Below are positions 1 to 14,832 of a DNA stretch of 14,832 bases, piece by piece. Location of the stretch: IMG/VR virus record IMGVR_UViG_2703719369_000026. The stretch is one strand, 5' to 3'. Under the pieces are notes generated by a model. It was not told the DNA's origin. It saw only the letters and a list, made by a program, of their open reading frames with translations, and ran no database searches. Positions within the stretch are counted from its first letter, which is position 1, and every line of letters begins with the position of its first letter. The stretch comes from a virus (taxonomy: Duplodnaviria; Heunggongvirae; Uroviricota; Caudoviricetes). The position numbers were made by a program, and so were the translations under genes.

Positions 1-1002
1 TTACCCTCTATTGTCAAAAGGGTTCAATTCAACAGCAGCCTCTAAATGACCTGGAGCAAAATGCGCATAACGCATAGTCATTTTTATATCGCTATGCCCC
101 AGTATTTTTTGCAACACAAGAATATTTCCACCCCGCATCATAAAATGACTGGCAAACGTGTGACGTAGCACATGAGTTAATTGCCCATCAGGAAGCTCGA
201 TCTTCGCTCTCTTAATTGCAGCGTCAAAAGCCTCATAACATGGTGAAAATAGCGCTCCTCGTTTTTTAGGAAGCATAGCTTGCAATTGAGGTGAAATCGG
301 TACAGTGCGGTTCTTCTTTCCTTTAGTTTTAACAAATGTGATTCGACCGGGCAGTACTTGAGATTGCTTTAATCCTTCTGCTTCACTCCACCGAGCACCA
401 GTCGCAAGCCCAATACGGACAACAACCCCCAAATCTTTATTCCGTGACTCATCACACGCAATCAGAAGGCGTTCAATCTCATCTACATACAGAAACGCCA
501 GTTCCTTTTCTTCCTCACGAAACTTGCGAATACCAGTCAGGGGGTTTTCACCAGACCACTCCCCAAGGCGCTTCAGTTCGGCAAAAACAGCATGTAGATA
601 TGACTGCTCGCGATTAACGGTTGCTTCACTAAGTTTTTTCTTCCCCTTGGGATTCCATTCTCCTGATAGCCTTCTTTCCCGATAAGTAGCAAACATATTT
701 TTGTCAAACTGAGAAGCAAATGGATCTCCCAGCCTGGAACAAATCGCCTCAAGTTTGACTTTGCGCTCTGCACCAGAGGACAAGGTTTTACCGTACATCT
801 CAAACCAACGAGCAATCAACTCAGAAAGACGAGGACCAGAACCATCTTGAAACTCGTCTCCAACTCTACTATTCATTAAACGGCGCTCATAAGAGAGCGC
901 CTCACTTTTTGTCGCAAACTGTTTACGAATGCGTTTTCCCGATGCCCCGTAGGGATAACATTCACAAAGCCATTTACCTGATGGAATCTTACGAACCGAC
1001 AT
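1..1002 (-). CDS. int: Tyrosine-type site-specific integrase (phage integrase family)
   Basis: Complete 333-aa ORF with the stop at window positions 1-3. The C-terminal catalytic region carries the tyrosine-recombinase signature (HVLRHTFASH ... LGHSDIKMTMRYAHF, i.e. the R/H/R/Y residues). Its ATG lies 5 nt downstream of the preceding gene's stop on the same strand, so it is probably co-transcribed. Confidence 0.9.
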   Translation of the reverse strand: MSVRKIPSGKWLCECYPYGASGKRIRKQFATKSEALSYERRLMNSRVGDEFQDGSGPRLSELIARWFEMYGKTLSSGAERKVKLEAICSRLGDPFASQFDKNMFATYRERRLSGEWNPKGKKKLSEATVNREQSYLHAVFAELKRLGEWSGENPLTGIRKFREEEKELAFLYVDEIERLLIACDESRNKDLGVVVRIGLATGARWSEAEGLKQSQVLPGRITFVKTKGKKNRTVPISPQLQAMLPKKRGALFSPCYEAFDAAIKRAKIELPDGQLTHVLRHTFASHFMMRGGNILVLQKILGHSDIKMTMRYAHFAPGHLEAAVELNPFDNRG

Positions 1003-1007
1003 TTTAG

Positions 1008-1355
1008 TTACTTATCACATAAATCAAATGCAGCCTTAGTGACATCCCCCAGACTCTTTTTTAACCCTGGGGCGGCATCATTATCTAGCCAAAATGGATT
1101 ATTGTTATCTAACGGTAACGCACCAAATGTTTTACCTTTTATTCGAGCCAAACCTGTAAGTGCATATAACTTATTATCGTCAAAATTCATCACATAAGGA
1201 TTACCATCAAGACACTGTAATTGAACCTCATCAGTATTAAATGGCCATACCCCATTGAAACTCTCACGTTCAATAGTTTTAAAAGGCATTGCGACGGCGG
1301 AAAAAGAAAACATAGATAAAAAAGTAACTAATAGTTGAACCTTTTTTACTTTCAT
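1008..1355 (-). CDS. Small secreted/periplasmic protein, possibly DUF2511/YebY-like
   Basis: 115 aa with a typical N-terminal signal peptide (MKVKKVQLLVTFLSMFSFSAVA) and two cysteines (QCLDG ... DLCDK) that could form a disulfide. GAGGT ribosome-binding site about 9 nt upstream. The family assignment is from memory of the YebY pattern and is not verified. Confidence 0.55.
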   Translation of the reverse strand: MKVKKVQLLVTFLSMFSFSAVAMPFKTIERESFNGVWPFNTDEVQLQCLDGNPYVMNFDDNKLYALTGLARIKGKTFGALPLDNNNPFWLDNDAAPGLKKSLGDVTKAAFDLCDK

Positions 1356-1384
1356 ATCATTACCTCAATTTAGCTCAAGTAAGA

Positions 1385-2035
1385 TTACAAATTAAAAAAC
1401 GCCCTAGAAATGACACCGCCTACCAAAACCCCTACGCAGATAAAGAATATTATTTCTTTTGGATAAAGTCGGATTAATTCTGAAGCACGAAGTCGGACTT
1501 CTGGTAAGGTCGAACTCTCTATGTGGCTTGATGCCGATTGTTGCTCTAACCACGACAATGCAGACTGTAACTGAGAACGAGTAAGATCGTTTAAACGTCC
1601 TGTACCGAAATTGATATGGCAATACCGCAGAAGTTTTTGTCGAAGTCCACAGTCTTCACTGTTACGTAGTAATAAACTTACAAGAGCCTTACAGGCATCA
1701 TGATCTTTACATCGCTCAAGCATTGCATGCAGAAAACTCTCCGCTGTTTTATATTGATTTACTGTCATATCATCAATACCAGCTACACCAATCTCCGCAT
1801 GTACTTTTTGCCAAATAATAAACGCTTCAGTATTGCTAGCTTCTGCAATAGCAGCAACCAAGCTATTTAGCTCCTTACGCTGAGCCTTAAGCAAAGGGCG
1901 ATCGTCATCATCATTATTCGAAGGGATTGCGATATTGACGGTATGAGAACCATCATATCGCTCTATCTGAATATTCTTTTCGTGAAAATCACGCCCAGCA
2001 ACGCGATTGTTTGAACCGTTTGAGTTGACGGCCAT
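1385..2035 (-). CDS. Hypothetical tail-anchored membrane protein (single C-terminal TM helix)
   Basis: 216 aa. The soluble N-terminal part includes a poly-Asp stretch (NNDDDDR), and the extreme C-terminus is about 20 hydrophobic residues (IIFFICVGVLVGGVISRAFF). Strong GGGAGGTG ribosome-binding site immediately upstream. The N-terminus repeats a motif found at the C-terminus of the upstream HTH protein. Confidence 0.6.
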   Translation of the reverse strand: MAVNSNGSNNRVAGRDFHEKNIQIERYDGSHTVNIAIPSNNDDDDRPLLKAQRKELNSLVAAIAEASNTEAFIIWQKVHAEIGVAGIDDMTVNQYKTAESFLHAMLERCKDHDACKALVSLLLRNSEDCGLRQKLLRYCHINFGTGRLNDLTRSQLQSALSWLEQQSASSHIESSTLPEVRLRASELIRLYPKEIIFFICVGVLVGGVISRAFFNL

Positions 2036-2050
2036 GTCACCTCCCTACTA

Positions 2051-2455
2051 TCACCTACCCTTAGTTTCGTTATAGTCACGACCAGCGATACGGTTATTAC
2101 CACCAGAAATATTTAACTCACGTCCTGATGGCTGAGTTTCCTTTTCACTGATCGCACCTTTTAAAGCCCCAATCACCGCGTTTTTCACATCTAACGAAGC
2201 TGCTCGAAAGCGAGTAATCAATTCCTGCTCATCATCGTTATAAGTTTCAGGTGAGTGAATTCCCAACACAACATACTGAACATCAAGGCCAAAACGAGAC
2301 AGCGCTGCCAAATACGCAGCATCAGGAAAGCTATCTCCTTTCTCATATCTAAGCTGAGTTAGCTTTTTGACTCCACCAATGTCGCTCATGGCAACTTGAC
2401 TAAGTCCCAATCTTTCCCTTTCCTCACGCAACCGCCGACCAATATCATTTTTCAT
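2051..2455 (-). CDS. XRE-family (Cro/CI-type) helix-turn-helix transcriptional regulator, candidate immunity repressor
   Basis: 134 aa. The N-terminal 65 residues fit the HTH_XRE pattern (IGRRLREERERLGLSQVAMSDIGGVKKLTQLRYEKG). It is first in the leftward operon and transcribed divergently from the rightward early genes, matching the position of P2 C or 186 cI. Confidence 0.8.
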   Translation of the reverse strand: MKNDIGRRLREERERLGLSQVAMSDIGGVKKLTQLRYEKGDSFPDAAYLAALSRFGLDVQYVVLGIHSPETYNDDEQELITRFRAASLDVKNAVIGALKGAISEKETQPSGRELNISGGNNRIAGRDYNETKGR

Positions 2456-2464
2456 ACAAAAACC

Positions 2465-2488
2465 TTGACAGGTATCTTTTTTGATACC
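2465..2488. promoter_or_regulatory. Candidate operator/promoter: TTGACA hexamer followed by a perfect inverted repeat GGTATC-TTTTTT-GATACC
   Basis: Read directly from the sequence: TTGACA at 2465-2470, GGTATC at 2471-2476, a T6 spacer, GATACC at 2483-2488. It lies in the 75-bp divergent region between the XRE repressor gene and the rightward genes. The -10 element and strand assignment are not resolved. Confidence 0.4.
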
Positions 2489-2530
2489 AAAATGATTTCA
2501 CGAGCTATTAGATGATCACAATATACCACT

Positions 2531-2737
2531 ATGAAACAAGTTCTTCACGATACCAGATCACGCATTCCGCGTAACACCGCCACAGGTCCAAGACTGGCAC
2601 TTCGGCTGTCCCTCGAGGAGCGAGCCGTCATTGATGAAATGGCAGCTAAAGAACAACGCTCATCCTCTAACATGGCGCGCATGATCTCCCTTCGCGGCCT
2701 AGAGCTAACCCAGAAAGAACAAAACAAATCTTCCTGA
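2531..2737 (+). CDS. Putative ribbon-helix-helix DNA-binding protein
   Basis: 68 aa with an RHH-like beta-strand plus two helices (RLALRLSLEERAVIDEMAAKEQRSSSNMARMI). No clear Shine-Dalgarno sequence, so it may be leaderless or weakly translated. Confidence 0.4.
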   Translation: MKQVLHDTRSRIPRNTATGPRLALRLSLEERAVIDEMAAKEQRSSSNMARMISLRGLELTQKEQNKSS

Positions 2738-2753
2738 TCAGGAGGCTAGTGGG

Positions 2754-2957
2754 ATGTCAGGTATAACCATCAATATCAATGTGAATGCCCCCTATGTATC
2801 CCTGCAGAAATATGCAGAGATAACAGGTATCCCTCTTAATACATGCAAAAAGATGTTGGCTGACGGTCGAATTATTATCCGCCCCAAACGCGCCAAAATG
2901 GAAAAGCCTGAAGTAAACCTTGTGGCGATGTTAAAAGACGCTTTGGCTAACAGCTAA
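2754..2957 (+). CDS. Putative Cox/Apl/Xis-like small HTH protein (excisionase or early regulator)
   Basis: 67 aa. AGGAGG ribosome-binding site 8 nt upstream. The motif YVSLQKYAEITGIPLNTCKKMLADGRI resembles the excisionase-type HTH. Its position, first clear rightward gene opposite the repressor, matches cox/apl. Confidence 0.5.
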   Translation: MSGITININVNAPYVSLQKYAEITGIPLNTCKKMLADGRIIIRPKRAKMEKPEVNLVAMLKDALANS

Positions 2958-2978
2958 AACAATGAACAGAGCACCATC

Positions 2979-3329
2979 ATGAAAAAAAACGCTAATAATC
3001 CATACTCCAAATTTCGTAATGGCGTAGAACGCCATGTACACCACGTCGCTACCAGTGCATCACGTAGTAACAGTCGCTATAACCTGAACGAGACGCATGC
3101 AACACCGGATGGCCACGCTGTAAAACAAATCGGCGAACATGCCTGGCTGATTGAGAAAGCTGGAATCGTGGTCCACAAATGCCCACGCAATCCGTTTACC
3201 GGGAACCGCATTTTTGCATTGAACTGCGGCGACAATCACTTCGGGCAGGATTTCACATTATACGAAGCACTTCGCACGGTTGATCGTCTGCTTCGCGGGC
3301 AAAGTTTTATTAAACAGGCTGATTTATAA
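2979..3329 (+). CDS. Hypothetical early-region protein
   Basis: 116-aa ORF in the rightward gene chain; no recognisable domain. Confidence 0.45.
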   Translation: MKKNANNPYSKFRNGVERHVHHVATSASRSNSRYNLNETHATPDGHAVKQIGEHAWLIEKAGIVVHKCPRNPFTGNRIFALNCGDNHFGQDFTLYEALRTVDRLLRGQSFIKQADL

Positions 3330-3339
3330 CAGGTGCTTT

Positions 3340-3618
3340 ATGACCAAAGAGCATGCACAAGGTGTATTTATCCGTTTTATTGATTTTCGCGGTGAACTGT
3401 TATTACGCGCATCAGCCATTGACGGAATTGTTCCATCCGAAAAAAACGCAGCTACTTACGTTTATCTGAACGGTACGCGCCTGACTGTGGAGCTTCCGTA
3501 CCAGACCGTACGAGAAATCATTAGCGAAGCTGAAAAGGCTCGTCAGGTTAATGGCGATGAACCCTATATCGAAATTATTTGTATGGATTCAGAAGCTGAA
3601 ATTCAGAAAGCAGATTAA
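3340..3618 (+). CDS. Hypothetical protein
   Basis: 92 aa starting at the ATG at 3340, which has an AGGTG ribosome-binding site. The longer 3280 start in the ORF track would overlap the previous gene by about 50 nt. Confidence 0.5.
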   Translation: MTKEHAQGVFIRFIDFRGELLLRASAIDGIVPSEKNAATYVYLNGTRLTVELPYQTVREIISEAEKARQVNGDEPYIEIICMDSEAEIQKAD

Positions 3619-3629
3619 AGGGCGTTGCG

Positions 3630-3872
3630 ATGGGCAAAGAATATAAAACTCTCATTAACAAAGCACCTGAACGATTTTATTTTCGCTTAAGTGCATCAGG
3701 CGCTCATGCTGAACGTGCAGCCCGTGACTCATTGACCAGGGCAATCCGGAGTTTGTATGACGTTGCTTTTTACGCTGATGATCTGGATGCACTTAACGAA
3801 CTTTCCGAGCTGATCTGTGCCGCAGAATGCGGGGAACACATTGAACCATATAAGCTGGGGAATATCGCATGA
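3630..3872 (+). CDS. Hypothetical protein
   Basis: 80-aa ORF. Its stop overlaps the next start (ATGA at 3869-3872). Confidence 0.5.
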   Translation: MGKEYKTLINKAPERFYFRLSASGAHAERAARDSLTRAIRSLYDVAFYADDLDALNELSELICAAECGEHIEPYKLGNIA

Positions 3873-3982
3873 GTATATTTATCTCATGGCTTGTTCTGAT
3901 TATTTCGGTGGCCTGCGCCATTGGGATTATGCGAATTATTCATTCAGTAAAAAAGATTGAACGCTTTTTCACTGACAAATAA
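3869..3982 (+). CDS. Putative 37-aa single-TM membrane peptide
   Basis: Not in the ORF track because it is under 60 aa. Translated by hand as MSIFISWLVLIISVACAIGIMRIIHSVKKIERFFTDK: a hydrophobic helix followed by a basic tail. Its start is coupled to the upstream stop (ATGA). Confidence 0.35.
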   Translation: MSIFISWLVLIISVACAIGIMRIIHSVKKIERFFTDK

Positions 3983-4074
3983 CAGCTTAAACAGAACACC
4001 AGATTAAACCCGAAAACCTGAAAACTATCCGCATTCGCGGAGGTATTCGCACACGTAAATAACGGAGATATAAA

Positions 4075-4491
4075 ATGAACGCAAAAGAAAAAAATATTAT
4101 CAATACATTAAAAATAGTGTCAGCAGAGCAAGACAAGCTGTCCAGGGCAGCCCAGAAAGATAATCAACATATGGCAGCGCTTTACGCACTGACCATCGCA
4201 ATAGCCACCCCTGAAGCAGCCAAAGTTATTGAGGAACAGAGCAAAGAAATCGACACTCTTAAAACACAGTCAACAGTTGCAGCCATGAATCCGTCCAGCA
4301 TTGGACGCTGCATTTATATTCTTGGTTCAGCAATGATGCTGCAATACACCATTATTGCCGAACTGCACGGCAAATACCTGATAACGCCTTACCACACAAA
4401 AGAGTCAGAGCTTCTGACAAATCTCCGCCTGATAGAACGCTCTCAAGCTGTATTCATTGATGACGCGCAACGTGCCGTATTTAACGCATAG
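4075..4491 (+). CDS. Hypothetical protein
   Basis: 138 aa with a GGAG ribosome-binding site; no recognisable domain. Confidence 0.5.
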   Translation: MNAKEKNIINTLKIVSAEQDKLSRAAQKDNQHMAALYALTIAIATPEAAKVIEEQSKEIDTLKTQSTVAAMNPSSIGRCIYILGSAMMLQYTIIAELHGKYLITPYHTKESELLTNLRLIERSQAVFIDDAQRAVFNA

Positions 4492-4514
4492 GGTTACTGG
4501 ACAAAGGGGGCGCA

Positions 4515-4718
4515 ATGGCAATTAAGCATTTTCCCGTCGTTCGCTTTACCTCCAGAGGGCGCGAATACGAGGTCGACGAACGCCTGATTACCACTATCGA
4601 CAAACATCGTTCGGAAAAGGATGCACACCACATCTACCTCACTGACGGCACTTACTTCTGCGCCACCAACGTGGCGCGAGTAAATCTTATCCGACAGGTA
4701 CAGGAGCCACGCAGATGA
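4515..4718 (+). CDS. Hypothetical small protein
   Basis: 67 aa with a strong AAAGGGGG ribosome-binding site. First gene of a three-gene translationally coupled chain. Confidence 0.5.
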   Translation: MAIKHFPVVRFTSRGREYEVDERLITTIDKHRSEKDAHHIYLTDGTYFCATNVARVNLIRQVQEPRR

Positions 4719-4981
4719 CCATTCTGGACTACATCGCTACTCATCCGGGGTGTAGCGGCGGAGAGATCGCCGCAGCACTGAATACCCCAACCACAGCCAT
4801 TAATGCTGAGTTACGCCGACTTTGGCGCGGCGGCTTAGTCATCAGAACAAACCGCAGCACAGGTGGTCGCGCTCGCAAAACAGGAGGCCAGGCTTCTTAC
4901 CACGTAAACCCGATGCCGTTCGGGTGTAGCAATCCACTTACTCACATGTTTAACCAGCTACTGAAGGAAGCCAGAGCATGA
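4715..4981 (+). CDS. Putative winged-helix DNA-binding protein
   Basis: 88 aa. AGGAG ribosome-binding site and ATGA overlap with the upstream gene. The N-terminal segment (DYIATHPGCSGGEIAAALNTPTTAINAELRRLWRGGLV) resembles a wHTH. Confidence 0.5.
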   Translation: MTILDYIATHPGCSGGEIAAALNTPTTAINAELRRLWRGGLVIRTNRSTGGRARKTGGQASYHVNPMPFGCSNPLTHMFNQLLKEARA

Positions 4982-5277
4982 GCACCATCAACCACCAGAA
5001 GCTACGCGAACTGGCATTTGCCCTGCAACGAATGGCAACGCCTCAAAAATTACTGGCATTTCGCGCAATGCTCTCGCCGTCTGCTGTGCTGGCACTGCTG
5101 GATCAGCTGGAGCACGCCAGAACCACGGCTCCTGCCATTCGCCTCACGCTCCATCATGAAATCGCTGATTTCTGCGCAACGCTGGGGGCACCTGGCGAAC
5201 CGGAAACGCCGGAAGCAATGCAGCAAGAGCTGCTGCAACGCATCGATAACGTTTTTGATTTTTTTCTGAACCAGTAA
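4978..5277 (+). CDS. Hypothetical protein
   Basis: 99-aa, helix-rich ORF with an ATGA overlap to the upstream gene. Confidence 0.5.
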   Translation: MSTINHQKLRELAFALQRMATPQKLLAFRAMLSPSAVLALLDQLEHARTTAPAIRLTLHHEIADFCATLGAPGEPETPEAMQQELLQRIDNVFDFFLNQ

Positions 5278-5399
5278 GAAACCAGAACATGCACACACAA
5301 AAAAACCGCTTGCCATGCCGCAATCGGTCAGGTTACATTTCCGCTGCACCTCATAAAACGGGTGCCGGGATTCTCAACCCGATACAGAGCAAAGCGCAT

Positions 5400-5420
5400 A
5401 ACCGCGCTAGCGGTTTTTTT
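5400..5420 (+). terminator. Candidate intrinsic terminator (hairpin plus T-run)
   Basis: AACCGC-GCTA-GCGGTT stem-loop at 5400-5415 followed by TTTTTTT through 5420. It lies about 125 nt downstream of the 4978-5277 gene. Confidence 0.45.
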
Positions 5421-5599
5421 GTGCGTACTGTATTGCCACGTCTTTTTCGCGTCAGAATTATGGCGGGGCGTACGGGGCCGACTTCGGTCGGGCCGGATTC
5501 TTTGCTCTCCGGTGTTGAGAACCCTGTACGTCTCGCCACCCCGAGATTCTCAACTCTGGATGGTGAGTTATTTCTATCACCGAGCAAAGAGGCCACACC

Positions 5600-5830
5600 A
5601 TGGCAGACCGCAAACAGCACCGCGCTATCGCGGAGCGTCGTCACATCCAGACTGAAATCAACCGCAGACTTTCCCGCGCATCACGCGTCGCGCAAATCAT
5701 GCACATCAATATGCTGCATGAGCGCAGCCACGCACTATCAAACATTTATTCCGCCTCTGTTTTCAGCTATCTGGCGGATGATCTGCACGAGTTTCAACAG
5801 CTCATCCAGCAGCAAAACAAACTCCATTAA
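5600..5830 (+). CDS. Hypothetical small basic protein
   Basis: 76 aa with an AAAGAGG ribosome-binding site 7 nt upstream. It is preferred over the overlapping 205-aa ORF at 5289..5906, which crosses the hairpin structures. Confidence 0.4.
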   Translation: MADRKQHRAIAERRHIQTEINRRLSRASRVAQIMHINMLHERSHALSNIYSASVFSYLADDLHEFQQLIQQQNKLH

Positions 5831-5902
5831 TTCCTGTTCCGGGCCTTTCCTGCACCTTGCGGCGGGAGGCCTTCGCACATCTGTAACAAGAGGATTGCCG
5901 CA

Positions 5903-6268
5903 ATGATTCTCGCCAACGACTTTCTTGAATACCTGCTCAACACAGAACGTGATCTTGCCGCTCGCGTGCGTGATCGTTATGACATGTACCTGAAATCCCT
6001 GCCTGTACCGCAGCTCGCTGACGGAAAGATTGTTATTGATGGTCGCTACATGATTGACAGCCACGAGGGAAATTACAGGCTTTACCGCATTGAAGGTGGC
6101 ACCCCGTCCGTTATTGGCATTTACCAGCGCCCATCCTCTGCAATCGTCGATGTGATTGCCGACAGCATCCGCATCACACATCGCCATGCCGACACAGAAG
6201 ACACCGTGCTGGAAATTCAGCGGCTGGCTACAGCCTGCCGCGACACCCTGAATGGCATGACGAAGTAA
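5903..6268 (+). CDS. Hypothetical protein immediately upstream of the replication initiator
   Basis: 121 aa with an AGAGGA ribosome-binding site. It sits where P2 carries gene B, but no similarity to B was recognised. Confidence 0.5.
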   Translation: MILANDFLEYLLNTERDLAARVRDRYDMYLKSLPVPQLADGKIVIDGRYMIDSHEGNYRLYRIEGGTPSVIGIYQRPSSAIVDVIADSIRITHRHADTEDTVLEIQRLATACRDTLNGMTK

Positions 6269-6274
6269 ATCACT

Positions 6275-9097
6275 ATGACGGCAGAGTACATCAGGGACTG
6301 GCAACAACCGCGCCACGCAGTGGGGCGTGAAGGAACGGGGATCCCCGCTCCTGAATCCGCGCTTTCCTCCTGGCTGGATGCCTACCGGGTAGAGAACGAG
6401 CGCCGCCAGGAAATGGCTGATGCGGCGTTCTCCGCAACGCCGCTGGGCAACCTGATTAATAAAAGCCTGGACGCACAGGAAAAACAGGACAAAACCATCA
6501 CACTGGCAGGAGACGCCAGAAAACAGGCACGCGGTGCGGTGGATGAAGCCATGGCCTCGCTGCGCCTGCTGCCGTCCTATCTGCGCGATCCGCTTATTCG
6601 CCACCTCTCCTTCCTGCGCAAAAAACAGGAAGCCGATCGTCAGAAAGGCAAAAAGAGCTGGCAGGCTGAACGCTACGCGCGCGGAAACCTGCGCAAAATA
6701 TTCGAACGTCTGGAGCGCACCGATCACCGCTGGCTGACACAGGGTTATCGCTCCCTTGCCGGACGCGAACGCCTGGACGATTTGCTTTACCTGCCGCAGC
6801 TCAACAAACACCAGATACAGACGCTGGCCACCATGACGGCGGCGATGTTCAGCAGCACCTTCGAAAAACTCTGCGATGGCTTTGGCGCGACCGATGGCGA
6901 ACTGACCATGGATGTAACGCTGAAGGCGTATCAGATGCTGGCCCGCATGGCGTTACACCTGCACGCCATGCCTCCACATTATGACGCACTGACAACAGAC
7001 AAAGACCGGAGGAACGAACCGGACACGGAGCTGCTGCCGGGCGCAATCCTTCGCCTGACCTGTGCGGAATGGTGGAAACGCAAACTGTGGCTGTTACGTT
7101 GCGAGTGGAGAGAAGAACAACTCCGCGCCGCCTGTCTGGTTTCCAGAAAAACATCGCCCTATCTGAGCCAGGACGCGTTAAGCGAGTTTCGCGCACAGCG
7201 CGAGAAAACACGCGATTTCCTGAAAAGTTTCATGCTGGAAAACGAAGACGGGTTCACGATTGATCTCGAGACAGTGTATTACGCGGGAGTAAGTAACCCG
7301 GTTCACCGTAAGGCAGAAATGATGGCCACCATGAAGGGGCTGGAACTTCTGGCCGAAGCCCGTGGCGACAAAGCGGTGTTTCTGACTGTCACCTGCCCGT
7401 CAAAATACCACGCTACAACAGAGAACGGTCATCCGAATCCCAAATGGAACGGGGCCACCATGCGCGACTCCAGCGATTACCTGGTTAACACGTTTTTTGC
7501 GGCGGTCCGCAAGAAACTGAACCGCGACGGCCTGCGCTGGTATGGCATCCGCACGGTGGAGCCTCACCATGACGGCACCGTGCACTGGCATATGATGGTC
7601 TTTGCTCATCCGGAAGAAATCGACACCATTGTGTCCCACACCCGCGATATTGCCATTCAGGAAGATCGTCACGAGCTGGGCGATGATATTACTCCGCGCT
7701 TTAAGGCGGAGTATGTCGACGGCTCAAAAGGCACGCCAACCAGCTACATCGCCACCTACATCGGAAAAAACCTGGACAGCCGCGCCGTGGATGGCATCGA
7801 CCCGAAAACAGGCAAACCACGCGTTGACCACGAAACCGGAAAATCAATGACCGAGAGCGTGGAACGCGCCATTGGCTGGGCGCGCCTTCACCGGGTCCGC
7901 CAGTTCCAGTTCTTTGGCATCCCCTCCCGTCAGGTGTGGCGTGAACTGCGTCGCCTTGCCAGCCAGATGGCACGCAACCCGGAAGGCCCGCAACGGCTGA
8001 AGGATGACGCAATGGATGCGGTTCTTGCTGCCGCTGATGCCGGATGTTTTACCACCTACATTGAGAAACAGGGAGGCGTACTTGTTCCACGCAAGGACTA
8101 CCTGATTCGCACCGCCTACGACCTCGCAGATGAGCTGAACGATTACGGCGAACAGAGCGTACAGATTTACGGGATCTGGTCACCACTCATCGGGGAATCC
8201 TCCCGTGTGTGCACGCACCCGGATAACTGGAAGCTGGTAAGACGTAAACCGGGAGTAGAAGACAGCGCCCGCGAAAATGGTTTTGACCTTCAGGGCGGCC
8301 CTGCCGCCCCTTGGACTCGTGGCAATAACTGTCCCCGTGTACAGGAAACGGACAACAACGGGACAGAACAGCCGGAAGAACGGCCAGCACCGTGGCCGCA
8401 GCTTCCTGACGGCGTTGACGTGAACGAATGGATGCGCTCACTGAAACGGCACGAACGCCGGGCGCTGATGCGTTCGCTTCGTGACAAACAGGCAAAAAAC
8501 AGCAGTGATGAAATGCAGAGCTGGACACAGAGCCGCAAACAGCAGCGGCCTTTGCCTGATAACCACGAATTACTCGCTAAAGAATGGCGGGAGTCTGCTG
8601 AATCTCTCGGCCTGCATATCGGTGAACAACAGATGCAGCACCTGTTACGGGGCGGCAGTCTGTACGTTGACGGCAGCATCATTGCACCGCAGGGATTTGA
8701 AATTGTACGCAAACCGGATACCCGCCCGGACAGCCGAATCACGCAGCTCTGGCAGCGCCTGAGCCGTAATCATGGCGTAAGCAGCACGGAGATCCGCCAT
8801 AACCCGGTCGCCAGCTATCTGGCACAGCTGGGGGCATCAGACCCTGAAGCCGCCGCACGCCTGGCATCCACACTTCAGCAGGACCAGAACACCATGAAAA
8901 CACCCGTTACCGTGCTTTCTGACATGCTGCGCGCCATCCGCGACGCAGAGCACGCACAGAGAATCAGTGAAACCACTGAACGCGCCAGCCGCAAAGCAGA
9001 CCTGCTGCGGGGTGGCCTGACCAGTGGAAACAAAAAACAGACAGAAACGGGACTCACAAATCCCGTAAATGAGCAAAAAACGCGCCGCGATATATGA
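6275..9097 (+). CDS. Rolling-circle replication initiator/endonuclease, phiX174/P2 gpA superfamily
   Basis: 940 aa. HUH motif VHWHMMVF encoded at about 7580-7603, and a paired-tyrosine active site SYIATYIGK (YxxxY) with the tyrosine codons at 7745-7747 and 7757-7759. It is about 180 aa longer at the C-terminus than the roughly 760-aa P2 A protein. Confidence 0.88.
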   Translation: MTAEYIRDWQQPRHAVGREGTGIPAPESALSSWLDAYRVENERRQEMADAAFSATPLGNLINKSLDAQEKQDKTITLAGDARKQARGAVDEAMASLRLLPSYLRDPLIRHLSFLRKKQEADRQKGKKSWQAERYARGNLRKIFERLERTDHRWLTQGYRSLAGRERLDDLLYLPQLNKHQIQTLATMTAAMFSSTFEKLCDGFGATDGELTMDVTLKAYQMLARMALHLHAMPPHYDALTTDKDRRNEPDTELLPGAILRLTCAEWWKRKLWLLRCEWREEQLRAACLVSRKTSPYLSQDALSEFRAQREKTRDFLKSFMLENEDGFTIDLETVYYAGVSNPVHRKAEMMATMKGLELLAEARGDKAVFLTVTCPSKYHATTENGHPNPKWNGATMRDSSDYLVNTFFAAVRKKLNRDGLRWYGIRTVEPHHDGTVHWHMMVFAHPEEIDTIVSHTRDIAIQEDRHELGDDITPRFKAEYVDGSKGTPTSYIATYIGKNLDSRAVDGIDPKTGKPRVDHETGKSMTESVERAIGWARLHRVRQFQFFGIPSRQVWRELRRLASQMARNPEGPQRLKDDAMDAVLAAADAGCFTTYIEKQGGVLVPRKDYLIRTAYDLADELNDYGEQSVQIYGIWSPLIGESSRVCTHPDNWKLVRRKPGVEDSARENGFDLQGGPAAPWTRGNNCPRVQETDNNGTEQPEERPAPWPQLPDGVDVNEWMRSLKRHERRALMRSLRDKQAKNSSDEMQSWTQSRKQQRPLPDNHELLAKEWRESAESLGLHIGEQQMQHLLRGGSLYVDGSIIAPQGFEIVRKPDTRPDSRITQLWQRLSRNHGVSSTEIRHNPVASYLAQLGASDPEAAARLASTLQQDQNTMKTPVTVLSDMLRAIRDAEHAQRISETTERASRKADLLRGGLTSGNKKQTETGLTNPVNEQKTRRDI

Positions 9098-9173
9098 AGC
9101 GCGCACAAAACAGGCAAAAGCGGGATTTAAAAATCCTGTAACCGATTAATTAATCAACATAAGGAAAAGCGAC

Positions 9174-10133
9174 ATGAAAATTTGTATCGACGACGGCTCC
9201 ACCAACATCAAGCTGGCATGGACTGAGAACGGCGAACGCCGCAACGCCATCAGCCCGAACAGCTTCAAGTCGGAATGGTCTGCGCCATTCGGTGGCACGC
9301 AGCCCGCGAACTACATGCTTGATGGCGTGCGCTATGGTTTTGATCCGGTCAGCGATCGCTTTGTCCAGACGACCGACACGCAATACCAGTACAGCGATGT
9401 GAATGTAATTGCCATTCATCACGCGCTGGTCAAATCAGGCATCACACCACAGGAAGTGGATGTGGTTGTCACCCTGCCACTGAGCGAGTATTTCGATACA
9501 AACGCACAGCCGGACATGGCCAACATCAACCGCAAAAAAGCGAACGTCATGCGCCCGGTGGAGTACCAGAACGGCGAAGCATTCACTATCCGTAACGTAC
9601 GGGTTATGCCTGAATCCATTCCTGCTGGCTTTAAGGCACTGGCTGACATGAGTCCGTTTGAATCCCTGCTGATTGTGGATTTGGGCGGAACCACGCTGGA
9701 TGTGGCAAAGGTTCAGGGGCAACTGGCAGGTATCAGCCAGGTGTTTTGCGATCCACACGTAGGCGTTTCTCTGATGGCCGATGCCGTACTGTCGGTGATG
9801 GCCACTAACGGTATGCGCACCAGTCACCACATCGCCAATACCATTATCGAACATCGCCATGATGAAGCCTGGCTGCGCCAGCACATCCACAATGACGCGC
9901 ATTACGCCAGCCTGATGGCGGTTATTCGTGAAAAGGAAGAAACACTGAAACAACGCGTGATCCGCGCGCTGGCGGTTTTTTCGGGTTACGGGCGGGTGAT
10001 GGTTGTCGGTGGCGGGGCGGAGATTGTGGCAACCGCTATCCGCGAAGCCTGCGGAGTTAATGCGACTTTCATCGCGGACGGGGTGCCACAGTTTGCTCTG
10101 GTTAATGGGTTGTACGCAATGAACAAGGAGTAA
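9174..10133 (+). CDS. parM: ParM/StbA actin-like segregation ATPase (type II partition)
   Basis: 319 aa, alignable by eye along its full length to R1 ParM. Actin-fold motifs are present: IDDGSTNIKL (phosphate-1), VDLGGTTLD (phosphate-2) and VVGGGAE. AAGGA ribosome-binding site. Confidence 0.92.
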   Translation: MKICIDDGSTNIKLAWTENGERRNAISPNSFKSEWSAPFGGTQPANYMLDGVRYGFDPVSDRFVQTTDTQYQYSDVNVIAIHHALVKSGITPQEVDVVVTLPLSEYFDTNAQPDMANINRKKANVMRPVEYQNGEAFTIRNVRVMPESIPAGFKALADMSPFESLLIVDLGGTTLDVAKVQGQLAGISQVFCDPHVGVSLMADAVLSVMATNGMRTSHHIANTIIEHRHDEAWLRQHIHNDAHYASLMAVIREKEETLKQRVIRALAVFSGYGRVMVVGGGAEIVATAIREACGVNATFIADGVPQFALVNGLYAMNKE

Positions 10134-10137
10134 ACCA

Positions 10138-10452
10138 ATGACGACACCAACCAGACGGATAAGTTTCTATCTGAAGCCCGCCGCCGTCAAGAGTGAACAG
10201 GAGGCGTGCAATTACCTCGATAGCCTGCCAGCCTCCGAACGCAGCCGCGCGCAACGCGCGGCCTTTCTGGCTGGGCTAGCACTCATAAAGCGCAACCCAG
10301 CATTTGCCTACTGGATGGCCGAATGGCCAGAGGACAACCTCCCCTTCAATACCGTTAGCATCAAGGAAACATACCAGGCTAATCAGCCTAGCGGAGTTGA
10401 ATGCAATTTTTATAAAATAAAAAAGAATATTCAGACCTTATTCCCAGAATAA
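10138..10452 (+). CDS. parR: ParR/StbB centromere-binding adaptor
   Basis: 104 aa starting 4 nt after the parM stop. The N-terminal RHH region (ISFYLKPAAV ... LDSLPASERSRAQRAAFLAGLAL) matches the R1 ParR pattern. Confidence 0.85.
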   Translation: MTTPTRRISFYLKPAAVKSEQEACNYLDSLPASERSRAQRAAFLAGLALIKRNPAFAYWMAEWPEDNLPFNTVSIKETYQANQPSGVECNFYKIKKNIQTLFPE

Positions 10453-10471
10453 TCTGATAATTGTATGTGAA

Positions 10472-10926
<455 letters not shown>

Positions 10927-10979
10927 TAAAGTTATGTTCCTGACGTATGTATTCGTCCCGCAGGAATCAACCAACTGAT

Positions 10980-11369
10980 TTATCTGAATTTATCATGCCC
11001 CTCAACTCTGATTTTATTCATCTTGTTTACCGAATCGGGTATATCTGATAACTGTCCCGATAAGACTTTTTGTTTCGCCAGCATAATCTCTTTTTCAAGC
11101 TTTTGAAGTTCTTTTATATAGTCATTCTTCCCTTCTTCATCAGCCGGTGAAATGCTCTCAGGAAGACGCTTCATTGACTCATCTACAGCATCATCCATTC
11201 TGTCAAGAGCTTCAAGAAGCTCCTTTTTATCCATTGATGACTGAAGTACACTCATATTCCTTGCAAGAACTTGCATGCTTTCATCAAGTTCTTCTGCCAC
11301 TGTAATCCCCCCACACAAAAAATATAATGCCATACCACAGCTGATTATAACTTTATTGCTTTTCTGCAT
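10980..11369 (-). CDS. cybC: Cytochrome b562 family protein (periplasmic, four-helix-bundle haem protein)
   Basis: 129 aa with a signal peptide. A Met near the mature N-terminus (AEELDESMQVL) and a C-terminal His (EGHDKFR) parallel the Met and His haem ligands of E. coli cytochrome b562. AAGGAG ribosome-binding site. Lies 43 nt downstream of the catalase-peroxidase gene. Confidence 0.75.
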   Translation of the reverse strand: MQKSNKVIISCGMALYFLCGGITVAEELDESMQVLARNMSVLQSSMDKKELLEALDRMDDAVDESMKRLPESISPADEEGKNDYIKELQKLEKEIMLAKQKVLSGQLSDIPDSVNKMNKIRVEGHDKFR

Positions 11370-11381
11370 AATTTCTCCTTC

Positions 11382-11404
11382 ATGAGGGAGGTGCCCTCCC
11401 TCAT
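11382..11404 (-). other. Intercistronic stem-loop between the catalase-peroxidase and cytochrome b562 genes
   Basis: Perfect 9-10 bp inverted repeat (A)TGAGGGAGG-tgc-CCTCCCTCA(T). It is not followed by a U-run on the coding (minus) strand, so it is unlikely to be an efficient intrinsic terminator. Confidence 0.5.
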
Positions 11405-11412
11405 CAGTTTTA

Positions 11413-13638
<2,226 letters not shown>

Positions 13639-13799
13639 TTAAGGGAAATTCGCATGTTGTATACAAAAGTCAACTTTATTGATGCAACAGGATATACCTA
13701 TTGCTGGGATAGATACTACAGACAAAAAATACTAAGGGGTTCCAAGCCGCAACTGACGATGCCGTTGAGTTCTGCGCAGACCTGAATATTCCCTTCTTT

Positions 13800-13985
13800 G
13801 TGGATGTCAGAAACAAAAAGCTGGTCTTCTGGTTTGTACGTGTTGATGACGAAGGGTATCCTGAAATAGCCCGCTGCACGGAGCGGGAGTTTGCGACCAT
13901 TCTTGCCGGTATCAGCGCCGGCGGCATGTACTGCCCGGAGTGTGGCACGGTTCACTGGCCGGACGGAGTTCCCCCGCCCTTCTGA
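13800..13985 (+). CDS. Hypothetical small ORF, possibly an IS91-family accessory ORF remnant
   Basis: 61 aa from a GTG start. The open frame extends upstream to 13713 without an ATG. Its stop overlaps the ATG of the IS91-like transposase (TGATG). Confidence 0.3.
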   Translation: MDVRNKKLVFWFVRVDDEGYPEIARCTEREFATILAGISAGGMYCPECGTVHWPDGVPPPF

Positions 13986-14420
13986 TGCTTCCCCGTTTTG
14001 CCGACATTTTTCAGCAGGGAAACCGCTGGCTTAACTGGCTGGAGAAACAACCGGAAGGTTCAGTGCGTCCGGTAGTCATTGAGTCTGTGACAAAAATCAT
14101 GGCCTGCGGGACCACGCTGATGGGGTACACACAGTGGTGCTGTTCATCTCCGGACTGCAGCCACATAAAAAAGGTCTGCTTCCGGTGTAAAAGTCGCTCC
14201 TGCCCGCACTGCGGAGTGAAGGCTGGCGCACAGTGGATACAGTATCTGCTGAGTCTGGTTCCCGACTGTCCGTGGCAGCATATTGTGTTCACACTTCCCT
14301 GCCAGTACTGGTCCCTGGTGTTCCACAACCGGTGGTTACTGGCAGAGATGAGCCGCATTGCTGCGGATGTGATACAGGAAATCTGCCGCCAGGCAGATGT
14401 GCGACTACGAACTCGAACCA
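13985..14420 (+). pseudogene. IS91-family (rolling-circle HUH-Y2) transposase, N-terminal fragment only
   Basis: N-terminal zinc-binding region typical of IS91 TnpA (VRPVVIESVTKIMACGT ... CSHIKKVCFRCKSRSCPHCG). The frame then gives way to IS3-family orfB sequence near 14420, so the catalytic HUH/Y2 domain is absent. Confidence 0.7.
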
Positions 14421-14424
14421 CAAT

Positions 14425-14832
14425 CTGCCAGTTGCGCCAAATCTGCTGAACCAGACGTTCGCTCCTGCAGCACCAAATCAGGTCTGGGTGGCGGACCTGA
14501 CGTATGTTGCCACACAGGAGGGATGGTTGTACCTCGCTGGCATCAAAGATGTTTATACGTGCGAAATTGTCGGCTACGCCATGGGAGAGCGCATGACAAA
14601 AGAGCTGACAGGTAAAGCCCTGTTTATGGCGCTCAGGAGCCAGCGCCCACCTGCCGGGCTAATCCACCACTCTGATCGAGGTTCACAGTACTGCGCATAC
14701 GATTACCGGGTCATACAGGAGCAGTTTGGTCTGAAAACATCAATGTCGCGTAAAGGTAACTGTTACGACAACGCTCCGATGGAAAGCTTCTGGGGAACGC
14801 TGAAAAATGAGAGCCTGAGCCACTATCGTTTT
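14425..14832 (+). pseudogene. IS3-family transposase orfB internal fragment, continuing beyond the window
   Basis: Hand translation in frame 1 gives NQVWVADLTYVATQEGWLYLAGIKDVY ... LIHHSDRGSQYCAYDY ... CYDNAPMESFWGTLKNE, a DDE integrase core. There is no upstream orfA or inverted repeat. The sequence differs from the IS629-like copy at 10484-10926. Confidence 0.8.

Follow-up and report, generated by a model that had tools for sequence, protein, structure and literature searches.

A P2-like lysogeny operon of Escherichia coli O157:H7 in which the tail of the immunity repressor matches the head of a tail-anchored Flk_N-family protein

P2-like and Mu-like prophages are very common in Enterobacterales and, to our knowledge, lysogeny control in prophage types that are not SOS-inducible is poorly understood. 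In SinR/SinI-type anti-repressor systems, an antagonist encoded next to the repressor copies the interaction segment of the repressor, and a heteromer forms through that segment. Here we analyse a lysogeny operon at the start of a 14,832-nucleotide (nt) stretch of viral DNA (IMG/VR record IMGVR_UViG_2703719369_000026; this whole stretch is called the window below), in which the C-terminal tail of the immunity repressor matches the N-terminal head of a 216-amino-acid (aa) membrane protein encoded immediately downstream. Shared termini have been described in bacterial amyloid pairs, where a motif of 15-26 residues is present at the C-terminus of one product and at the N-terminus of the adjacent product (10.1101/2020.01.06.895854). 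One such system, Bab/Agp (BASS11), is an abortive-infection pair located in E. coli prophage defence islands (10.1101/2024.11.07.622273). Flk, a member of the family to which the 216-aa protein belongs, inhibits the export of late substrates; it is a cytoplasmic protein held by an anchor at its C-terminus (PMC13344023).

The XRE, Flk_N, DUF2511 and integrase (int) families encoded in the operon are already known, and earlier work has noted that P2-like phages are variable near int and that yebY homologues occur beside phage repressor genes (PMC8689200). In the literature, no description was found of a match between a repressor tail and a partner head or of the function of prophage Flk_N proteins, and searches on membrane-anchored anti-repressors or on Flk in prophages found nothing relevant.

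The locus is a P2-like prophage remnant of E. coli O157:H7, beside yecA, and the operon is a P2-like lysogeny operon composed of a repressor, a tail-anchored Flk_N protein, a variable cargo gene and an integrase. The four open reading frames (ORFs) stand head to tail on the minus strand in the order repressor, 216-aa protein, 115-aa protein and int, with gaps of 15, 29 and 5 nt. A search across the operon found no terminator-like site between these leftward genes, which are apparently co-transcribed. The components are as follows.

2051-2455, minus strand: XRE-family immunity repressor, 134 aa (ORF; Pfam HTH_31/HTH_3; PHROG repressor families; AlphaFold2 model).
2066-2113, minus strand: C-terminal tail motif of the repressor, NISGGNNRIAGRDYNE, residues 115-130, followed by the basic end TKGR.
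1385-2035, minus strand: 216-aa tail-anchored Flk_N-family protein, the conserved partner of the repressor (PF27202, NCBIfam Flk, PHROG 5825).
1976-2026, minus strand: N-terminal head motif of the partner, NSNGSNNRVAGRDFHEK, residues 4-20, matching the repressor tail.
1520-1900, minus strand: helical Flk_N domain of the partner, residues 46-172 (AlphaFold2 model).
1394-1453, minus strand: C-terminal transmembrane anchor of the partner, residues 195-214 (hydrophobicity maximum; modelled helix 192-214).
1008-1355, minus strand: 115-aa YebY/DUF2511 protein, predicted to be periplasmic, cargo in a variable slot (Pfam DUF2511, PDB 7n0j).
1-1002, minus strand: tyrosine integrase, the final gene of the leftward operon (Pfam Int_N and Phage_integrase).

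An earlier note on this DNA had described the same four genes, and their coordinates, strand and gaps are exact. The tail anchor that it placed on the 216-aa protein and the secretion that it proposed for the 115-aa protein (a signal-peptide-like N-terminus and two cysteines) are borne out, as is its picture of repressor-linked, co-oriented and apparently co-transcribed genes upstream of int in a P2-type switch. Arc-like and Cox-like genes diverge from these genes, and the stretch is not housekeeping. Two of its claims hold in part. The 216-aa gene (GGGAGGTGAC-ATG) and the 115-aa gene (TTGAGGTAATGAT-ATG) each have a strong Shine-Dalgarno sequence, but inspection of the sequence ahead of int and of the repressor gene revealed no obvious one. 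AT-richness is clear only for the 115-aa gene, whose GC content of 0.353 is the minimum of the operon (216-aa gene, 0.412; repressor, 0.440; int, 0.446). Overall, coordinates, spacing and topology stand, whereas the notions that the 216-aa protein belongs to no known family and that the repressor and the two extra genes are a conserved trio do not (see below). The strongest feature of the locus, the tail/head match, is absent from that note.

In the AlphaFold2 model, the repressor consists of a helix-turn-helix (HTH) domain (residues 1-64), two helices (residues 74-105) and a disordered tail (residues 103-134), for which the predicted local distance difference test (pLDDT) score is below 50. 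The tail motif NISGGNNRIAGRDYNE matches the head NSNGSNNRVAGRDFHE of the 216-aa protein, both termini being disordered in the models. When the end of the repressor (...NISGGNNRIAGRDYNETKGR) is aligned with the start of the 216-aa protein (MAVNSNGSNNRVAGRDFHEKNIQ...), 10 of 16 residues are identical; codons differ for six of these ten, and 29 of 48 nt are identical. Apart from the repressor tail and the partner head, the window has no further copy of the motif, and the tail motif is kept at the C-terminus of repressors from related loci. Recent duplication or gene conversion is ruled out as the source of this likeness because six of the ten identical residues differ in codon, and the match survives deep divergence. 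Fusion of the two products by read-through or frameshifting was also rejected: the genes are in the same frame in the window, but TGA TAG TAG lie between them, and at other loci gaps of 8, 11 and -4 nt place them out of frame.

Neighbourhoods of the pair were surveyed in E. coli, Klebsiella and Erwinia, in Rosenbergiella, Mixta, Izhakiella, Enterobacter, Hafnia, Symbiopectobacterium and Arsenophonus, and in about 80 P2-like contigs of IMG/VR. Throughout the intact P2-like loci examined, the order is repressor, Flk_N protein, variable gene and int, with a DUF2511 gene interposed in Erwinia. XRE-like proteins account for 104 of the 113 unique ORFs upstream of the partner. The tail/head match, defined as a score above the 99th percentile of the repressor's own shuffled tails, is found in 104 of 112 unique pairs (median z, 9.9). 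Six of the eight exceptions have a gene inserted or a frameshift between repressor and partner, and the other two (L209 and L210) have a tailless repressor beside an N-terminally extended Flk_N protein. The mean score of the tail is 60.7 against the Flk_N head, 17.0 against the N-terminus of int and 15.8 against the N-terminus of the cargo protein; as a further control, the C-terminus of Flk_N proteins scores 17.7 on average against the cargo N-terminus. Low-complexity composition is ruled out as the cause of the match by the shuffled tails, which score 18 +/- 4 compared with 33-79 for cognate pairs, and is also countered by the int and cargo controls.

The pair is not confined to P2-like prophages. 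In Mu-like transposable prophages, distant tail-anchored Flk_N proteins follow XRE repressors, at loci that carry an rve transposase, a Ner-like gene, Mu gp27, DUF2730 and holin/SLT genes. The conserved unit, in P2-like and Mu-like prophages alike, is the repressor and its membrane protein, and the pair predates the P2 context. A locus scan with P0150 found no loci.

Tails and heads vary together, across several motif classes that are unrelated to one another. In addition to class A, whose tails and heads include NRVAGRD-type sequences, two further classes are exemplified by the following pairs.

Class B motif: repressor tail GQQFNGPVGTVTTGDVVN, partner head QQQFHGAVEQVAAGDIKN.
Class C motif: repressor tail TFHGAVGQAVAGNITNKSGVTFNVG (or TFKEVGQYIHGSVNQSGLTLNVGG), partner head QDFHGGVGQVAEGDINNYGININL.

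In a co-variation matrix of 16 x 16 cluster representatives, the scores of class A heads are 37-79 with class A tails and 12-29 with tails of class B or C, and the same holds in the opposite direction. In none of 20000 trials did permuted pairings match the observed score sum. The rest of the repressor does not follow the tail: closely similar HTH domains are combined with differing tails or with none, and differing HTH types share one tail. As the repressor tail and the head of the 216-aa protein are the same co-varying peptide, it is to the repressor, and not to the 115-aa protein, that the 216-aa protein is tied.

A forward test was carried out with three repressors that were chosen solely for their unusual tails by repressor homology search, the loci being fetched afterward. 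A matching head was present on the next gene at all three new loci, and two of the three partners are membrane proteins other than Flk_N.

Gilliamella locus L213: tail QVFNSKVSGQVSAENIYN; the next gene (3412-3867) encodes a 151-aa multi-transmembrane protein with the head QNFYGQVDQVAANNIYN.
Gilliamella locus L215: tail GEGQIAGGNIY; the next gene encodes a Flk_N protein with the head AEQIAGRDIY.
Locus L217: tail NVGTNHGQVVEGGLVNH; the next gene (3521-3889) encodes a 122-aa protein with a Zn-ribbon and a transmembrane segment and with the head DVDSNFGQIAETIENH.

At a further locus, L131, the motif occurs on three consecutive proteins, and the repressor tail HRVAGHTFNE is closer to the head of the adjacent Zn-ribbon/transmembrane protein (NRVAGHTYNE) than to that of the downstream Flk_N protein (NRVAGRDFQE). 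This Zn-ribbon/transmembrane partner is 154 aa long (3026-3490). Pfam and PADLOC scans of the non-Flk_N partners at L131, L217 and L213 gave no significant family. From these comparisons the rule is that the tail of the repressor recurs as the head of the protein encoded next, which is itself membrane-anchored, and that Flk_N proteins are the commonest partners and not the sole ones.

The 216-aa protein was unplaceable in any known family according to the earlier note; profile searches assign it to PF27202 (Flk_N; precomputed for near-identical and related proteins), to the NCBIfam Flk model NF007987 (E 8e-16, 58.2 bits; residues 37-166 against model positions 20-149 of 339) and, over its full length, to PHROG 5825 (E 8e-103). 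The Flk_N family comprises 134 proteins at E <0.001 in a library of 1.84 billion representatives, some of which are tail-anchored and ~190-230 aa long, whereas the others are of Flk length (~320-430 aa) and are matched in two stretches. The 216-aa protein has the features of the prophage subfamily, namely a length of ~185-230 aa, a head motif, one Flk_N domain and a C-terminal transmembrane segment. The Flk_N gene is under purifying selection (nonsynonymous divergence, dN, of 0.25-0.3 with saturated synonymous divergence, dS, or dN/dS of 0.31).

In the AlphaFold2 model of the 216-aa protein, which was built from a 14-sequence alignment, the head (residues 1-45) is disordered (pLDDT 35-45) and the helical domain (residues 46-172) is confident (pLDDT 85-91). 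Its sole strongly hydrophobic stretch lies at the extreme C-terminus (residues 195-213; mean Kyte-Doolittle value 2.36); a hydrophobic C-terminal segment is present in all 14 aligned homologues, with G202 invariant and G206 in at least 90%. Because the terminal helix is the only strongly hydrophobic segment, the protein is predicted to be tail-anchored with its body in the cytoplasm, as for Flk. The modelled fold of the Flk_N unit is that of the C-terminal domain of Red-beta, which binds peptides and proteins, and of lambda Orf; a BFVD fold search gave only weak matches to ORF6C, RecT C-terminus and Bro-N proteins (E >=0.008), and a sequence search found no relatives with a solved structure. 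The 216-aa protein also has weak PHROG matches to anti-repressor Ant families. In one family member, P0229, a single Flk_N unit follows an N-terminus that is Rha-like as read by eye. The Ant matches and the architecture of P0229 suggest that the Flk_N unit is a small module through which phage regulatory proteins bind proteins or peptides.

The matched termini suggest an undescribed link between the lysogeny switch and the cell membrane. Because the termini match, co-vary, are disordered and are carried by two co-expressed proteins, direct homotypic pairing is the simplest reading, and because all partners are membrane-anchored with a cytoplasmic head, tethering or titration at the membrane is its likely form. 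The ~20-residue disordered tail of the repressor would pair strand against strand with the near-identical cytoplasmic head of the membrane protein, and the partner would retain or titrate some of the repressor molecules on the inner side of the membrane. Such sequestration might tune or gate the lysis-lysogeny switch, the partner acting as a membrane-anchored anti-repressor or co-factor that mimics the terminal peptide of the repressor. To the proposal that the membrane partner tethers or titrates the repressor by direct tail-head pairing we assign a probability of roughly 0.45. Tail-head binding, sequestration at the membrane and the direction of the effect on the switch are steps that we infer from purely comparative evidence. 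A defence or exclusion role for the pair is possible.

Several points weigh against direct pairing at the membrane. An anti-repressor on its repressor's own transcript would be regulatorily odd unless it were controlled by a signal. Class A has no fine-grained co-variation, as is illustrated by the combination of the tail NRVAGRD with the head NRAAGRD (L071 and L075). A shared third-party binder, such as a protease adaptor or an anti-repressor of a phage or satellite, would also explain matching and co-varying peptides. Furthermore, the loci are phylogenetically related, and for this reason the independent support consists of the distinct motif classes and the three successes in three forward tests, not of the 104 pairs.

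Amyloid-type signalling for exclusion or abortive infection is the alternative that survives best, although we consider it unlikely. The matched termini would be a templating motif like that of BASS11 in Bab/Agp, with the repressor or its DNA-bound oligomeric state as the trigger and the membrane partner as a membrane-damaging effector; in a variant, the repressor would be irreversibly inactivated through nucleation by the partner. The genes are arranged as in the published amyloid-signalling pairs (10.1101/2020.01.06.895854; Bab/Agp, 10.1101/2024.11.07.622273), every partner type is a membrane protein, and the class C motifs (TFHGAVGQAVAGNITNKSGVTFNVG and QDFHGGVGQVAEGDINNYGININL) contain many G, N and Q residues together with alternating hydrophobic ones. 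At some loci the pair is followed by defence-like cargo, as at L026, where a PADLOC TIR-TM match has an E value of 4e-103. In the pair itself, however, there is no NLR/STAND sensor and no Bell/HeLo-type effector, and a PADLOC search of the two proteins gave no defence-family matches. The class A motif is short (~17 residues) and has R, R, D and E in its core, and AlphaFold2 predicts low-confidence coil and no beta structure in head or tail. A self-matching peptide that serves as a cross-beta, prion-like templating switch, wiring the immunity repressor to the membrane through capture and conversion of tails by heads or the reverse, is an improbable mechanism. If it were true, SOS-independent, membrane-triggered induction or a repressor-triggered membrane effector for exclusion would exist in P2-like and Mu-like prophages, and amyloid-type signalling would be widened from NLR/effector pairs to a core enterobacterial lysogeny switch. 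Amyloid-type signalling is also the closest surviving form of the rex-like idea of the earlier note.

In a second alternative, tail and head are both recognised by a third factor, which could be a protease or adaptor or an anti-repressor of a phage, satellite or competitor, and the membrane protein serves as a sink, either protecting the repressor or competing with it. Any mimic has to keep pace with the sequence that it imitates, and co-variation is thus explained equally well as by direct pairing; the joining of the conserved C-terminal part of the repressor to differing HTH domains is as expected for a common docking surface, and the prophage itself encodes a P4-epsilon-like "derepression" protein (5600-5830). 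However, in the neighbourhoods surveyed no candidate third factor goes with the pair in P2-like and Mu-like prophages alike, a host factor would not require at least five motif classes, and the tail at L131 matches the nearest head, not all heads. We regard a shared tag or decoy as a doubtful reading, with the odds well against it.

The family assignment of the partner raises a third alternative, in which the prophage protein would act like Flk on the flagellar type III export gate and alter flagella or FlgM secretion, for example against flagellotropic phages. A Flk_N domain and a C-terminal membrane anchor are common to both proteins, and Flk inhibits the export of late substrates from just such a cytoplasmic, C-terminally anchored position (PMC13344023). 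Yet the 58 bits scored by the 216-aa protein fall far below the equivalog cut-off of 353 bits of the NCBIfam model, and that model matches one stretch (Flk 20-149 of 339), whereas in Flk-length relatives (~320-430 aa) the family profile matches two. The head motif is missing from the Flk-length relatives P0166, P0170 and P0171, membrane proteins without Flk_N take the same position and carry the same kind of head, and the match to the repressor tail is left unexplained. A Flk-like function is very improbable.

The 115-aa protein and the position of its gene bear on the last alternative. The protein matches Pfam DUF2511 (PF10709; 28.4 bits against a cut-off of 21) and PDB 7n0j, the structure of YebY (E 0.0027). 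It has a signal-peptide-like N-terminus, LLVTFLSMFSFSAVA (approximately residues 1-22; 1290-1355), and two cysteines, Cys48 and Cys113, with the same numbering as the Cys48-Cys113 disulfide of YebY (PMC8689200). The DUF2511 gene is under purifying selection (dN/dS 0.05-0.14). Among 58 unique P2-like loci, the slot between the Flk_N gene and int holds at least eight unrelated gene families or is empty, DUF2511 being found in 22 of the 58 and in several genera. The other cargo in the slot consists of proteins with a BRCT domain plus a WYL-like part (288-295 aa), acidic DUF8087 proteins (81-108 aa), PDC-S48-like proteins (291-298 aa), secreted or membrane proteins (202-244 aa), tail-anchored coiled-coil proteins, Zn-ribbon proteins and a single 137-aa protein. 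In Erwinia, the DUF2511 gene lies between the repressor and Flk_N genes, and a different gene fills the slot. The DUF2511 gene looks to be independently acquired lysogenic-conversion cargo.

The commonest cargo outside E. coli (Klebsiella and Enterobacter; L003, 5647-6513, and relatives) is a protein of 288-295 aa with an N-terminal BRCT domain (Pfam E 5e-05) and a weakly WYL-like middle part. On the Mu-like contig L026, a 290-aa TIR protein (4490-5362) that matches PADLOC TIR-TM over its full length (E 4e-103) is encoded by the second gene downstream of the repressor/Flk_N pair, the first being a 123-aa ORF, and at L022 an NA37/NdpA nucleoid-associated protein occupies the position held by the TIR gene at L026. 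A cargo slot behind the pair appears to exist in Mu-like phages too.

A three-gene superinfection-exclusion or defence module in which membrane and periplasmic proteins cooperate, as the earlier note had proposed, is the least supported reading and is scarcely credible: although the genes apparently share a transcript with the repressor, like those of lambda cI-rexAB, although DUF2511 recurs in the operon (22 of 58 unique loci, and in a second position in Erwinia), and although, YebY apart, the one DUF2511 relative that has been characterised is a protein of self-resistance to a lantibiotic (PMC8689200), the third gene is swapped for seven other families or missing, the DUF2511 gene is compositionally distinct (GC 0.353), PADLOC searches gave no matches, and the conserved linkage of the Flk_N protein is to the repressor and not to DUF2511. 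The trio reading was dropped because the third gene varies across the surveyed neighbourhoods. Absence of the trio as a conserved unit elsewhere had been named by that note itself as what would speak against it, and the neighbourhoods indeed hold no such unit; nor do the membrane and periplasmic proteins form a pair, given the changing contents of the slot before int at the 58 loci. Its suggested kinship with Rex or with known defence systems has likewise fallen, no homology to RexA or RexB and no match to a PADLOC defence model having been detected.

With regard to the genomic setting, bases 1-2800 of the window are 100% identical to E. coli O157:H7 chromosomes, where int adjoins yecA, and 98% identical to Escherichia phage 520873 (P2-like; Peduoviridae, Xuanwuvirus). 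A match to the locus is present in 599 of 5426 complete E. coli genomes. In the GenBank phage collection, the Flk_N gene was found only in the prophage-derived phage 520873, with weak matches in three Ralstonia phages. The record of phage 520873 (L001) carries no annotation over the DUF2511 and Flk_N stretch (2039-3081). In the same record, the Flk_N match is split into three tblastn pieces and int is annotated as two fragments; as both are split, frameshifts or sequencing errors in the deposited record are suggested.

The layout is that of P2-type immunity and integration regions: the leftward repressor-int transcript is opposed to a rightward Cox-type operon, which is followed by the gpA replication gene. 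The switch region and the early genes are as follows.

2456-2530 (75 nt): divergent switch region with candidate operators, recognised from repeats and sequence patterns only.
2531-2737, plus strand: Arc-like early gene, 68 aa (PHROG 3431, E 4e-27).
2754-2957, plus strand: Cox-like excisionase/repressor (PHROG 575, E 1e-27).

A candidate operator, GGTATC-N6-GATACC, lies at 2471-2488, with further copies of GATACCA at 2483 and 2549 and an ATACCA half-site at 2523, and a promoter-like site on the plus strand spans 2465-2493. The rightward early genes (2531-2957) are annotated likewise in Escherichia phage 520873. The RefSeq annotation of O157 omits the 68-aa Arc-like ORF and calls a 45-aa ORF on the opposite strand of this stretch instead.

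Farther along the P2-like prophage itself, the plus strand encodes a 76-aa "derepression protein" (5600-5830) of PF25738, the P4 epsilon family. P4 epsilon, a protein of this family, is the anti-repressor of P2 C. No LexA box above chance was found near the epsilon-like gene. A gpA-like replication endonuclease (6275-9097) is followed on the plus strand by genes for a ParM-type segregation ATPase (319 aa) and a partition/stability protein (104 aa) at 9174-10452. The ParM-type and partition genes hint that the integrated P2-like prophage may have a plasmid-like maintenance option.

Bases 1-10450 of the window are chromosomal P2-like prophage, and 10486-14832 are 100% identical to the katP region of plasmid pO157. 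The pO157-like part contains the following features.

11413-13623: KatP.
10980-11369: cytochrome b562-like protein.
In the same part: pieces of the insertion sequences IS91 and IS600.

The join lies near 10470-10930, within an IS3-family fragment that includes masked bases (a run of N). Rather than a natural neighbourhood, the window probably represents a chimeric assembly or includes a masked insertion-sequence copy.

If the membrane-anchored partner indeed copies the repressor tail in order to act on it, it would represent a new point at which lysogeny, immunity or induction is controlled. A simple search rule, by which the first gene's product ends in the peptide with which the second gene's product begins, has already picked out further partner families, and the precise cargo slot beside int can be mined for lysogenic-conversion and defence genes. 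The earlier picture is corrected in that the 115-aa gene is cargo, outside any fixed module.

In comparison with known systems, the slot shares with the accessory and defence hotspots of P2-like phages its position beside int and its interchangeable cargo; unlike those hotspots, it extends precisely from the Flk_N gene to int, and most of its cargo is not recognised as defence systems. The 115-aa protein has DUF2511, a signal peptide and Cys48/Cys113 in common with YebY of the E. coli yobA-yebZ-yebY operon and with MlbQ, a protein of self-resistance to a lantibiotic, but its gene lies in a prophage lysogeny operon without CopC/CopD partners. As in lambda cI-rexA-rexB, accessory genes including one for a membrane protein are carried on the repressor transcript of the lysogen; unlike lambda rex, the locus has no sequence kinship to RexA or RexB, PADLOC defence models hold no family for the 216-aa or the 115-aa protein and only weak HTH-type matches for the repressor, and the link is a shared peptide. 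With Flk (RflH, "Fluke") of Salmonella and E. coli, the 216-aa protein shares the Flk_N helical domain and a cytoplasmic body on a single C-terminal anchor; it is shorter (216 aa compared with ~333 aa), is prophage-encoded directly after a repressor and bears a head motif that Flk-length relatives lack.

The closest likenesses concern the shared peptide. As in BASS1-10 and in Bab/Agp (BASS11), the genes are adjacent, the same motif of at least 15 residues is C-terminal in one product and N-terminal in the next, some pairs are in prophages, and one partner is membrane-targeted. Here, however, an XRE repressor is combined with a small membrane protein, whereas in the BASS pairs an NLR or tetratricopeptide-repeat (TPR) sensor is combined with a Bell-type effector, and the motif sequences are unrelated to those published signatures that were available for comparison. 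Compared with SinR/SinI-type anti-repressors, the segment held in common is a disordered terminal peptide, not a folded helical hook, and the partner is membrane-anchored and co-transcribed downstream of the repressor.

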